A stretch of 64,000 nt of DNA from Escherichia coli (lineage in GTDB: Bacteria; Pseudomonadota; Gammaproteobacteria; Enterobacterales; Enterobacteriaceae): the NCBI RefSeq assembly GCF_050920415.1, contig NZ_CP169309.1, one strand, 5' to 3'. Of this stretch, positions 58,419 through 63,094 are shown piece after piece. The position numbers were made by a program, and so were the translations under genes. The notes below the pieces were generated by a model. That model was not told the DNA's origin. It made no database searches and saw only the letters and a list, made by a program, of their open reading frames with translations. The stretch's first letter is position 1; each line of letters starts with the position of its first letter.

Positions 58419-61094
58419 TTACTTCAACATATTACGAATGACATAATGCAAAATGCCGTCGTTCTGGTAGTAAGTCAACTCCGTCGCGGTGTCGATACGA
58501 CAACAGCAGGGTACGACTTCCTGGCTACCATCCGCGCGCGTAAACGTCACCGGAACCGTCGCACCGGGTTGTAGACTTTGCAGATCGACAATATCAATCT
58601 TCTCTTCCCCGATTAGCCCTAACGTTTTACGCGTCACGCCTAGCGGAAATTCCAGCGGCAGGATGCCCATGCCAATTAAATTCGAACGGTGAATTCGTTC
58701 AAACGATTCGGCAATCACAACACGAATACCAAGCAGACGCGGACCTTTTGCTGCCCAGTCACGGCTGGAGCCTGATCCATACTCTTTCCCGGCAATCACC
58801 GCCAGCGGCGTTTGCTCCTGCTTATAGCGCATCGCGGCATCATAAATAGAGACGACATCACTGTCAGGTAGATGCCGCGTCATCCCCCCTTCAACGCCAG
58901 GCACCATTTCATTACGAATGCGAATATTGGCGAAGGTGCCGCGCATCATCACTTCATGGTTACCACGCCGCGAACCGTAGGAGTTAAAGTCTTTGCGCTC
59001 AACACCCCGACCTTGTAGATATCGCCCCGCCGGGCTATCGGGCTTAATGCTGCCCGCCGGAGAAATGTGGTCAGTGGTAACCGAATCCCCCAGCATTGCG
59101 AGGATCCGCGCACCGTGAATATCTTCCACAGGTGCTGGTGTTGCCTGCATTTCATCAAAGAAAGGCGATAAGCGAATATAGGTTGAATCCTCCTGCCAAC
59201 CGTAGGTATCGGATCGCGCAACGTTAATCTCTTTCCATTCCGCCGTGCCTTCAAAAACTTCTGCGTACTCTTTGCGGAACATTTCTGTGGAGACTTGTTC
59301 TACCGCACGGGCAATTTCTTGTGCCGATGGCCAGATATCTTTCAGATATACCGGATCGCCTTTACGATCGTGACCAATAGGCTCAGAAGTGAGGTTAATA
59401 TTCATATTTCCCGCCAGCGCATAGGCAACCACCAGCGGCGGCGAGGCCAGCCAGTTAGTTTTAACCAGCGGATGGATACGGCCTTCAAAGTTACGGTTGC
59501 CGGACAGCACCGCACCGACGGTTAAATCGCCTTTTTTGATTGCCGTTTCGATAGGATCGGGCAATGGACCAGAGTTACCAATACAGGTGGTACAACCGTA
59601 TCCCACAAGGTTAAATCCCAGTTCATCCAGATACGGTGTCAGTTTCGCTTTTGCCAGATAATCAGAAACGACTTTCGAGCCTGGTGCCAGCGACGCTTTG
59701 ACCCACGGTTGCCGCTTGAGGCCCAGAGTTACAGCTTTTTTCGCCAGCAAACCTGCGGCCATCAGCACACTTGGGTTAGAGGTGTTGGTGCACGACGTTA
59801 TCGCAGCAATGACCACCGCGCCATCAGGTAACTGATACTGATGTCCGTTCATAACATAATCGACCGGCTGGCGATCTTTATGCGTGGCATTTACTTCCAG
59901 TTCGTTACTGGCGGCAAATGCTTTTGGTACATCGGGCAGTGCAACGCGATCCTGTGGGCGTTTTGGCCCTGCCAGGCTCGCTTCAACGTCATTCATATCC
60001 AGTTCTAACGTACTGGTAAAAATCGGTTCATCGCCCGGGTTACGCCACATGCCCTGCGCTTTGGCATATTTTTCGACCAACTCGACCTGATCTTCGCTGC
60101 GCCCGCTTAAACGCATGTAATCGAGGGTGACAGCATCGATTGGGAAGAAGCCACAGGTGGCACCATATTCTGGCGACATATTGGCAATGGTGGCGCGATC
60201 CGCCAGCGGTAGTGAATCCAGCCCATCACCATAAAATTCGACGAATTTCCCCACCACGCCATGTTTGCGCAGCATTTGGGTAACGGTGAGAACCAGGTCT
60301 GTGGCGGTAATACCTTCACGTAATTTTCCGGTGAGTTTAAAGCCCACTACGTCCGGGATAAGCATGGAAACCGGCTGGCCTAACATTGCGGCTTCGGCTT
60401 CGATCCCACCAACGCCCCACCCCAGCACGCCAAGGCCGTTGATCATGGTGGTGTGCGAGTCAGTACCAACGAGTGTATCCGGATAAGCAATCCATTCACC
60501 GTCCTGCAATTCGCTCCACACTGCTTTGCCGAGATATTCGAGGTTAACCTGATGGCAAATGCCTGTGCCTGGCGGCACGACGCTAAAACGACTGAACGCC
60601 TGCTTTCCCCATTTCAGGAACACATAACGTTCGTGGTTGCGCTCCATTTCCAGGCGCACGTTTTCTTCAAATGCCTCATCATCACCAAAACGATCGACGG
60701 TCACCGAGTGGTCAATGACCAGGTCGACCGGTGAGAGCGGGTTAACCTTTGCAGTATCGCCGCCGAGGCGTTTAACCGCTTCGCGCATTGCCGCCAGATC
60801 AACAACGGCAGGTACGCCGGTAAAGTCCTGCATCAGCACCCTTGCCGGGCGGTAGGCAATTTCACGGTCAGCATGGGCATTTTTCAGCCATCCCACCAGC
60901 GCGTAGATATCCTCTTCGGTAACCGAGTTACCATCCTGCCAGCGCAGCAGGTTTTCGAGCAAAACTTTGAGTGACTTAGGCAGACGGGTGATATCGCCCA
61001 GTGATTTGGCAGCAAGCGGCAGGCTGTAGTAGTGGTAAGTTTTATCTTTGGCCTGCAACGTGTCCTTACTGGCTTCTCGTAGGGTTGACGACAT
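58419..61094 (-). CDS. acnA: Aconitate hydratase A
   Basis: 891 aa; [34 protein letters not shown]... Confidence 0.95.
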
Positions 61095-61466
61095 AGCTCC
61101 TCCTTAATGACAGGGTTGCGAAGCCCTGATTCTCTTCAGGGTGAATATTAAAGATAACACAAACATTGCGTAACGATTTGATAACAACCCAAATTGATAA
61201 AAGAGGAGAAACCTTGTGGCAAAGCAAATGAAAACCCCGCCGCAGCGGGGTCAGGGATCAGTGAGTAATGATCCAGAGGAGTTCGGCCCAGAAGAGCATC
61301 GACAGAGAAAATGCGCCCATCCAGGACCAATATTTCATATTTGTGTTGATCATAGGCTACACCCTTAACGGTTATTACTTTGTGTTGAGATAACTCAACC
61401 TGTTATTGCTGCGGTGTATTAAAAGCCCTTTAATTCATTAAAAATGGGTAATAAGAATGATGATAA

Positions 61467-61634
61467 TTATTGTTTCGGCTGATCATCTTCAGCAAACAGT
61501 TCTATAAAGGCTTGCTGCTGCGTTGTTAGTTGCCAGTCGTCTGGAATAACGACGGAACATTCCCGTTTCGTTACTGGTTCATTGTCACTATGCTGACATA
61601 ATTGTGACGACTCCAGTTGCTCCTGACCGACCAT
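61467..61634 (-). CDS. yciX: Small protein YciX
   Basis: MVGQEQLESSQLCQHSDNEPVTKRECSVVIPDDWQLTT...; 55 aa from the internal ATG of ORF 61467-61655. Confidence 0.6.
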   Translation of the reverse strand: MVGQEQLESSQLCQHSDNEPVTKRECSVVIPDDWQLTTQQQAFIELFAEDDQPKQ

Positions 61635-61636
61635 AG

Positions 61637-61765
61637 TTATCCCCACACTTTCCAAATCAGCAGTGCGACAACCCCCCAGAAAAGTGCAGAACCAAGAAAT
61701 ACCGCTAGCCAGGCTTTGCGTTTTAATTCAGGGTCCCGGCGGGGTTCCTGATTTCCAGAAGGCAT
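61637..61765 (-). CDS. ymiA: Small membrane protein YmiA
   Basis: Manually translated as MPSGNQEPRRDPELKRKAWLAVFLGSALFWGVVALLIWKVWG (42 aa); sits immediately upstream of yciX. Confidence 0.55.
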   Translation of the reverse strand: MPSGNQEPRRDPELKRKAWLAVFLGSALFWGVVALLIWKVWG

Positions 61766-62095
61766 TGCTAACCTCATATAATCGCCATCACTTATCAGCA
61801 AGACGTTGAACGATTGGTGTAATTAATCATACGATGAGACAAATCCTAAAGAAACTTTAGTCAAAAATCCAGCGAATTTACGAATCGTCTCCAGTGAATA
61901 ATTCAATCTTTTGACCTGAAATAGATATTTGAAAACTGGAGTTTGCGAGGCGGGTAATTAGACACTACTTTACAGGTGATTTACCCTATAAATATGAGGG
62001 ATAAAAATATTGTGCACGGTATACAAATAAGCAACAAAAGAGAATATATTCCGGCACCTTCGCTACATAAAAGGTGCCGAAAATAACGCAAGAAA

Positions 62096-63094
<999 letters not shown>

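Follow-up and report, generated by a model that had tools for sequence, protein, structure and literature searches.

The cysB-acnA interval and its small genes

The window analysed here is the whole 64,000-nucleotide stretch of Escherichia coli DNA presented above. It carries ymiA (b4522) and yciX (b4523) on the minus strand between cysB and acnA, the flanking products CysB and AcnA being encoded at 62096-63070 (-) and 58419-61094 (-), respectively. RefSeq and K-12 coordinates were mapped onto the window for ymiA, yciX and the downstream gene ymiC, and terminators were located with a terminator scan. The resulting features are:

61637-61777, minus strand: ymiA coding sequence as currently annotated (141 nt, 46 aa plus stop, MRLAMPSGNQEPRRDPELKRKAWLAVFLGSALFWGVVALLIWKVWG; RefSeq/K-12 mapping)
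61467-61634, minus strand: yciX coding sequence (55 aa plus stop; annotation, at identical coordinates in the genome that matches best)
61258-61353, minus strand: ymiC (b4741) coding sequence (31 aa; annotation, with matches to PF23694 and NF041484)
61233-61252, minus strand: intrinsic terminator after ymiC (terminator scan)
62049-62082: terminator after cysB (terminator scan)

The gene names and the position between cysB and acnA, both claimed in the initial annotation of this DNA, are borne out by the RefSeq and K-12 annotations. A search of complete E. coli genomes with 1 kb of the window that spans the spacer from cysB to acnA gave matches in 5,421 of 5,426, at a median of one place each, with ymiA, yciX and ymiC annotated; over this kilobase the window is 98% identical to K-12. 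An IS1 insertion lies within this small-gene region in two E. coli sequences (NZ_CP083880.1 and NZ_LS992185.1). The interval 61467-61765, previously given without its strand (minus), is exact from the sequence, and we are highly confident that it represents ymiA and yciX as the opening genes of an operon already known from E. coli, the small-protein operon ymiA-yciX-ymiC; its description as a pair of genes is incomplete in that ymiC, the third gene of the operon, was left out. Both ymiA and yciX are already annotated, expressed and published.

Short open reading frames are frequent by chance in this region, where 69 with 20 aa or more occur within 4 kb, so that the ymiA and yciX frames taken by themselves constitute weak evidence. 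The two genes are considered real because of HMM matches, annotation at the same place across genomes and purifying selection across genera. That ymiA had escaped the program-made ORF track is plausible, as its longest possible ORF (54 aa, from TTG at 61801) is below a cut-off of 60 aa.

Conservation across Enterobacteriaceae

A scan of species-representative genomes yielded 121 loci encoding YmiA relatives, 80 of which were kept; comparisons of start codons, junctions and yciX lengths were made over 84 loci. The genera represented are Escherichia, Citrobacter, Salmonella, Enterobacter, Kosakonia, Leclercia, Lelliottia, Phytobacter, Trabulsiella, Yokenella, Franconibacter, Pluralibacter, Silvania and others. 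Wherever the retrieved sequence reaches far enough upstream of ymiA, as it does in 82 of 84 loci, it contains cysB; acnA lies downstream, at variable distance, in 82 of 84. The order cysB-ymiA-yciX(-ymiC)-acnA, together with a tight ymiA/yciX junction, is thus conserved across Enterobacteriaceae.

Nei-Gojobori estimates over 19 genera gave dN/dS values of 0.07 for ymiA, 0.14 for ymiC and 0.24 for yciX as a whole, the latter dividing into 0.40 for the N-terminal and 0.12 for the C-terminal half.

YmiA, a predicted single-pass membrane protein

YmiA of the window matches the Pfam family PF22868 (YmiA-like) over residues 1-46 (121.9 bits against a cut-off of 27, E=9e-36) and the NCBIfam equivalog NF000536 over residues 5-46 (95 bits against a cut-off of 30, E=1.5e-27). 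A basic N-terminal stretch (residues 1-22, net charge +3) is followed by one hydrophobic segment (residues 24-42, Kyte-Doolittle maximum 2.30); the hallmark of the family, one hydrophobic helix at the C-terminus preceded by a basic stretch, is therefore found in the window, as are all of the invariant residues K19, W23, V26, F27, S30, W34, W42 and W45.

61643-61711, minus strand: YmiA transmembrane segment (residues 23-45; Kyte-Doolittle), containing Val35Gly

The single-pass membrane topology predicted in the initial annotation agrees with this hydrophobic segment and with the membrane localization of an N-terminal fusion, GFP-YmiA, in K-12 (PMC11429745). YmiA is furthermore included in a list of predicted tail-anchored proteins, and PRM proteomics reports it as a protein of 46 aa at approximately 1,000-3,000 copies per cell.

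Relative to K-12, ymiA of the window has one replacement, Val35Gly (nt 61674, codon GTG in K-12 to GGG), at a position where Val is the consensus, and five changes at third positions that are synonymous, leaving 45 of 46 residues identical. Since exactly this Val35Gly protein is found on 93 public contigs, and the K-12 form on at least 1,000, the replacement in the transmembrane helix is a natural minor variant.

The translation start of ymiA

Three starts of ymiA have been annotated in succession. The minus-strand ATG at 61765 opens a frame of 42 codons that ends with TAA at 61639-61637, and this 42-aa form was the GenBank annotation of 2006; a record of 2014 placed the start at TTG 61801 (54 aa); the start annotated today (61777) lies 12 nt upstream of ATG 61765. 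The initial annotation had adopted lengths of 42 and 55 aa and had named differing database sequences as its refutation. The 55 aa of YciX equal the annotated protein, which has the same sequence, whereas the database YmiA differs (46 aa, MRLAMPSG...).

61763-61765, minus strand: alternative ymiA ATG (42-aa form; ATG in 84 of 84 loci; start of NF000536)

Comparative data may suggest that the main or ancestral YmiA is the 42-aa product of ATG 61765, with the 46-aa form as a minor or E. coli-specific isoform, and that the sequence just upstream of this ATG is a ribosome-binding region rather than coding. ATG 61765 is the sole start kept as ATG in all 84 loci, while the codon at the annotated start is ATG in 61, GTG in 5, and a non-start codon (ACG, GCG or AAG) in 18. 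It is preceded by GAGG at 61772-61775; AGG is invariant 6 nt upstream and GAGG is present in nearly all loci, and predicted Shine-Dalgarno (SD) pairing is stronger than at the annotated start (-6.3 versus -4.6 kcal/mol). The 11 codons before the universal methionine have a pS of 0.20, compared with about 0.65-0.70 in the genes themselves, and a pN/pS of 0.77; judged by this substitution pattern, the constraint on them is at the level of nucleotides, not of protein. The NF000536 model also begins at this methionine, and its length is that of the 42-aa form. Given the better SD sequence and the universal ATG, the choice of the 42-aa frame is understandable from sequence alone.

However, experimental data from K-12 point to the upstream start. 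Two independent profiling methods, TetRP initiation profiling (PMC4909307) and Onc112/retapamulin profiling (bioRxiv 10.1101/511675), place the main initiation signal at MRLAMP, with little signal at the 2006 site. The tryptic peptide LAMPSGNQEPR (PMC4909307) cannot derive from the 42-aa product and hence requires translation from an upstream start, and the PRM data likewise give 46 aa. Moreover, in all 18 loci where MRLAMP lacks a start codon, an ATG is present seven codons before it, and an extended ymiA product can therefore always be encoded. The 46-aa start is consequently established for E. coli, correcting the 42-aa start proposed before, and a 42-aa main or ancestral product appears improbable. 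A 42-aa isoform beside the 46-aa protein is a minor possibility, to which the universal conservation and the better SD pairing of the downstream ATG leave room. The evolutionary pattern behind the three competing starts is clear.

The ymiA/yciX junction

61632-61644, minus strand: ymiA/yciX junction GGGGA-TAA-CT-ATG (sequence)

The separation of 2 nt noted at the outset corresponds to CT at 61636-61635, between the TAA of ymiA and the ATG of yciX. The start of yciX, which the initial annotation had regarded as doubtful, coincides with the annotated start, and the junction is conserved: the distance from ymiA stop to yciX start ranges from -4 to +4 nt in all 84 loci and is 2 nt in 51. The yciX start of Salmonella is a GTG that directly abuts the ymiA stop with a gap of 0 nt (L064 2639-2690; L084 1663-1833). 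The SD sequence of yciX, GGGGA, is formed by the last two codons of ymiA (TGG GGA), which encode the invariant Trp-Gly at the end of YmiA; its pairing energy is -5.5 kcal/mol with a spacer of 5 nt.

The pair hence displays the anatomy of coupled genes, with a start close to the preceding stop, an SD sequence inside the upstream gene, and both kept in relatives. This conserved tight junction with its internal SD argues for translational coupling, and we infer from the sequence that ymiA and yciX may be coupled in this manner. A distant contig (L087) shows a 1-nt overlap at the corresponding junction, where the end coordinate of an uncalled YmiA-like ORF is the first base of the ATG of the YciX-like gene.

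YciX, a conserved family with a C-terminal motif

YciX of the window is 100% identical to WP_001355251.1 (strain MFDS1022581). Compared with K-12 YciX, with which it shares 93% identity, it has the four replacements P11Q, T20P, E21V and S38T, with one synonymous change. On 95 public contigs the exact 55-aa sequence occurs under the title 'protein YciX [Escherichia coli]'. Searches of Pfam and NCBIfam returned no family model for YciX, and membership was assigned by orthology and alignment of the C-terminal motif. A first word-index search gave the impression of a protein confined to Escherichia and Shigella, as the index missed orthologues of about 45% identity; syntenic tblastn and a full HMM scan refuted this. 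Orthologues of 54-59 aa follow ymiA in 83 of 84 loci, the diverged ones with identities of 38-52%, and an exhaustive profile search retrieved 69 cluster representatives, almost all of them small proteins. Database entries described as YmiA-YciX fusions look like the products of frameshifts or of mis-called ORFs rather than true fusions. By these sequence comparisons, YciX is a fast-evolving yet conserved family that is not specific to Escherichia.

61494-61547, minus strand: YciX C-terminal motif (residues 30-47; alignment, AF2 and dN/dS)

The protein is acidic, with a net charge of -8, and its sequence varies in the N-terminal half. Six residues, W34, L36, Q40, F43, I44 and F47, are invariant in the alignment, and all of them belong to the motif. 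The AF2 model as a whole has a pTM of 0.34 and contains a single short helix (residues 38-45) whose hydrophobic moment is modest (at most 0.29). The pLDDT is 50-55 for residues 1-20, 94 for residues 31-40 and 85 for residues 41-50, and there is no secondary structure before residue 38; the N-terminal part of YciX thus looks disordered in this model. A profile search of the PDB for structural relatives gave only matches with E>1.

One might ask whether yciX is functional as a protein at all, or rather a translated spacer between ymiA and ymiC, or a young and drifting ORF. Such a reading could draw on the lack of a Pfam or NCBIfam family and of a PDB relative, on the rapid evolution of the N-terminal half and the excess of replacements over synonymous changes against K-12, and on the literature found, which reports neither a phenotype nor a binding partner of yciX. 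S. arizonae may be added, in which yciX is cut to 15 codons with ymiA intact, while yciX is intact in Salmonella subsp. enterica and diarizonae. However, the gene is kept at 54-59 aa with six invariant residues in 83 of 84 species loci, the C-terminal half is under clear constraint (dN/dS as above), the motif has high confidence in the AF2 prediction, and it is kept in very distant homologues, which are still located behind cysB and a ymiA-like gene. We consider a non-functional yciX highly improbable, and a constrained C-terminal motif in a conserved protein remains our preferred reading. On the contig of L087 (1571-1965) the YciX-like gene is kept in a setting where cysB is followed by ribA and pgpB, with no acnA.

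Operon structure and the downstream gene ymiC

The genes ymiA, yciX and ymiC form one transcription unit, bounded by the terminator of cysB and the terminator after ymiC, and the operon has been published as such (PMC11429745). All genera inspected have a hairpin with a T-run behind ymiC, although the stem sequences differ. A preprint on sPepFinder states with reference to dRNA-seq that ymiC has no separate promoter. There was no significant match to ymiC in 14 loci that keep ymiA-yciX (L046, L050, L051, L053, L059, L060, L062, L075, L079, L080, L043, L067, L083 and L037), which belong to Citrobacter (freundii-group and related), Pseudescherichia and one Pluralibacter MAG.

The Rfam family STnc180 (RF02079), a Salmonella sRNA candidate, has a full-length match at 61224-61426 (-) with 202.7 bits, which coincides with the ymiC ORF and its terminator. 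This element is part of the same transcript directly downstream of yciX and lies outside 61467-61765. Whereas STnc180 has been called an sRNA candidate, ymiC is here a translated ORF for a membrane protein of 31 aa, followed by a terminator; the original paper on STnc180 regarded it as a likely processed mRNA, and RIBOseq of EHEC displays high ribosome coverage over STnc180/ymiC.

The region upstream of ymiA

61778-61971, minus strand: non-coding block preceding ymiA, conserved (promoter, operator, leader; 24-genus alignment)

Transcriptional reporter and RNA-seq data from K-12 show that the region upstream of ymiA confers PhoQ/PhoP-dependent expression at low Mg2+ (PMC11429745). Approximately 195 nt of this region are conserved at the nucleotide level in more than 20 genera, with TTAGGATTT invariant at 61838-61846, and probably constitute an undescribed operator or promoter architecture. 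A hidden ORF in the block was considered and rejected, as the alignment contains 1-nt indels and the changes lack a bias to third codon positions. A search of the leader for conserved RNA structure gave an MFE z-score of +0.56, and consensus hairpins were weak, invariant or broken in E. coli.

The canonical PhoP box, (T/G)GTTTA-N5-(T/G)GTTTA, has only two matches upstream of ymiA, at 61836-61852 and 61847-61863, each with three mismatches, a quality that occurs 178 times in the window where 131 are expected by chance. In view of this, PhoP control of ymiA could be indirect. The CpxR box GTAAA-N5-GTAAA has a single match upstream of ymiA (61959-61973, two mismatches), which is at chance level. 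Regarding yciX itself, a 3-12-fold decrease under LolCDE inhibition has been reported, linking it to envelope stress, and it is listed in the Salmonella Cpx regulon.

The published PhoP site TGTTTGTGTTATCTTTA was considered as operator of ymiA and rejected, as it adjoins acnA: it is situated at 61149-61165 (-), 55-71 nt upstream of the acnA start, and PhoP binding to it has been reported by EMSA for the acnA promoter of Salmonella. Together with the PhoP dependence of ymiA, this site places PhoP links at both ends of the cysB-acnA spacer. The P1 start of acnA is reportedly located about 407 bp upstream of acnA and would, as we presume, fall inside yciX.

Proposed function and comparison with known systems

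Based on these data, a sequence of steps may be envisaged. Translational coupling would yield YmiA and YciX together in a fixed proportion; YmiA would be a tail-anchored protein of the inner membrane whose N-terminus remains in the cytoplasm, and might modulate a larger envelope protein, by analogy with MgrB, MgtS and PmrR; YciX could then act as a cytoplasmic partner or adaptor of YmiA, docking through its conserved helix. The interaction of the two proteins is purely conjectural, and the intact ymiA beside a truncated yciX in S. arizonae implies that a partnership would not be obligatory. We hypothesize a module of Enterobacteriaceae and of distant cysB-linked contigs, controlled by PhoPQ or by envelope stress, in which tail-anchored YmiA and a co-translated, largely disordered and acidic YciX may jointly act on a target in the envelope; YciX would dock via the helix with its six invariant residues (W34 to F47). 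This proposal includes two N-terminal isoforms of YmiA, since the downstream ATG is the only universally conserved start. Taken as a whole, it is tentative, and we would consider it rather unlikely to hold in every part.

Overexpression of YmiA alone causes a lag of 8-10 h and longer cells, an effect abolished by mutation of the start codon (PMC11429745). This observation, and the tight coupling to a protein of opposite charge (+4 for YmiA versus -8 for YciX), could be taken to indicate a toxin-antidote pair, with YmiA as small membrane toxin and YciX as its co-translated neutralizer. However, harmless regulators such as MgrB, MgtS and PmrR show the same lag upon overexpression (PMC11429745), ymiA is tolerated in S. 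arizonae although yciX is no longer intact there, and the pair is chromosomal, syntenic, vertically conserved and under strong purifying selection. Type I toxin-like peptides (Ldr, Ibs, DinQ) are characterized by an antisense or overlapping antitoxin RNA and by a patchy and often multi-copy occurrence, and ymiA-yciX differs in both respects, with no antisense or other RNA family found on the opposite strand. A toxin-antidote function hence seems very unlikely.

In itself, the finding matters little, as the genes are known and the only correction is a shift of the ymiA start by 12 nt. The added value is comparative: YciX lacks a curated model and nevertheless accompanies ymiA in 80 species or more and has a sharp C-terminal motif, and to this are added the pattern of ymiA starts and approximately 195 conserved upstream nucleotides without a recognizable PhoP box. 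New here are the conservation of synteny and junction over 80 species loci, the YciX family with its motif, the dN/dS estimates and the universal ATG of ymiA. These points provide handles for assigning a function to the PhoPQ-induced ymiA-yciX-ymiC operon.

Among known systems, the closest counterpart is ymiA of E. coli K-12 itself, with the same locus, the same neighbours and a full-length HMM match, together with E. coli yciX (b4523), whose position relative to ymiA is identical. MgrB, MgtS and PmrR appear as functional analogues, which YmiA resembles as a protein of less than 50 aa with a single pass through the inner membrane, induction at low Mg2+ and a lag upon overexpression (PMC11429745). 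In contrast to this likeness, YmiA has no sequence similarity to them, and deletion of ymiA in K-12, like that of ymiC, causes no phenotype (PMC11429745); ymiA is furthermore unusual among these genes in being tightly joined to the gene of a soluble acidic partner.
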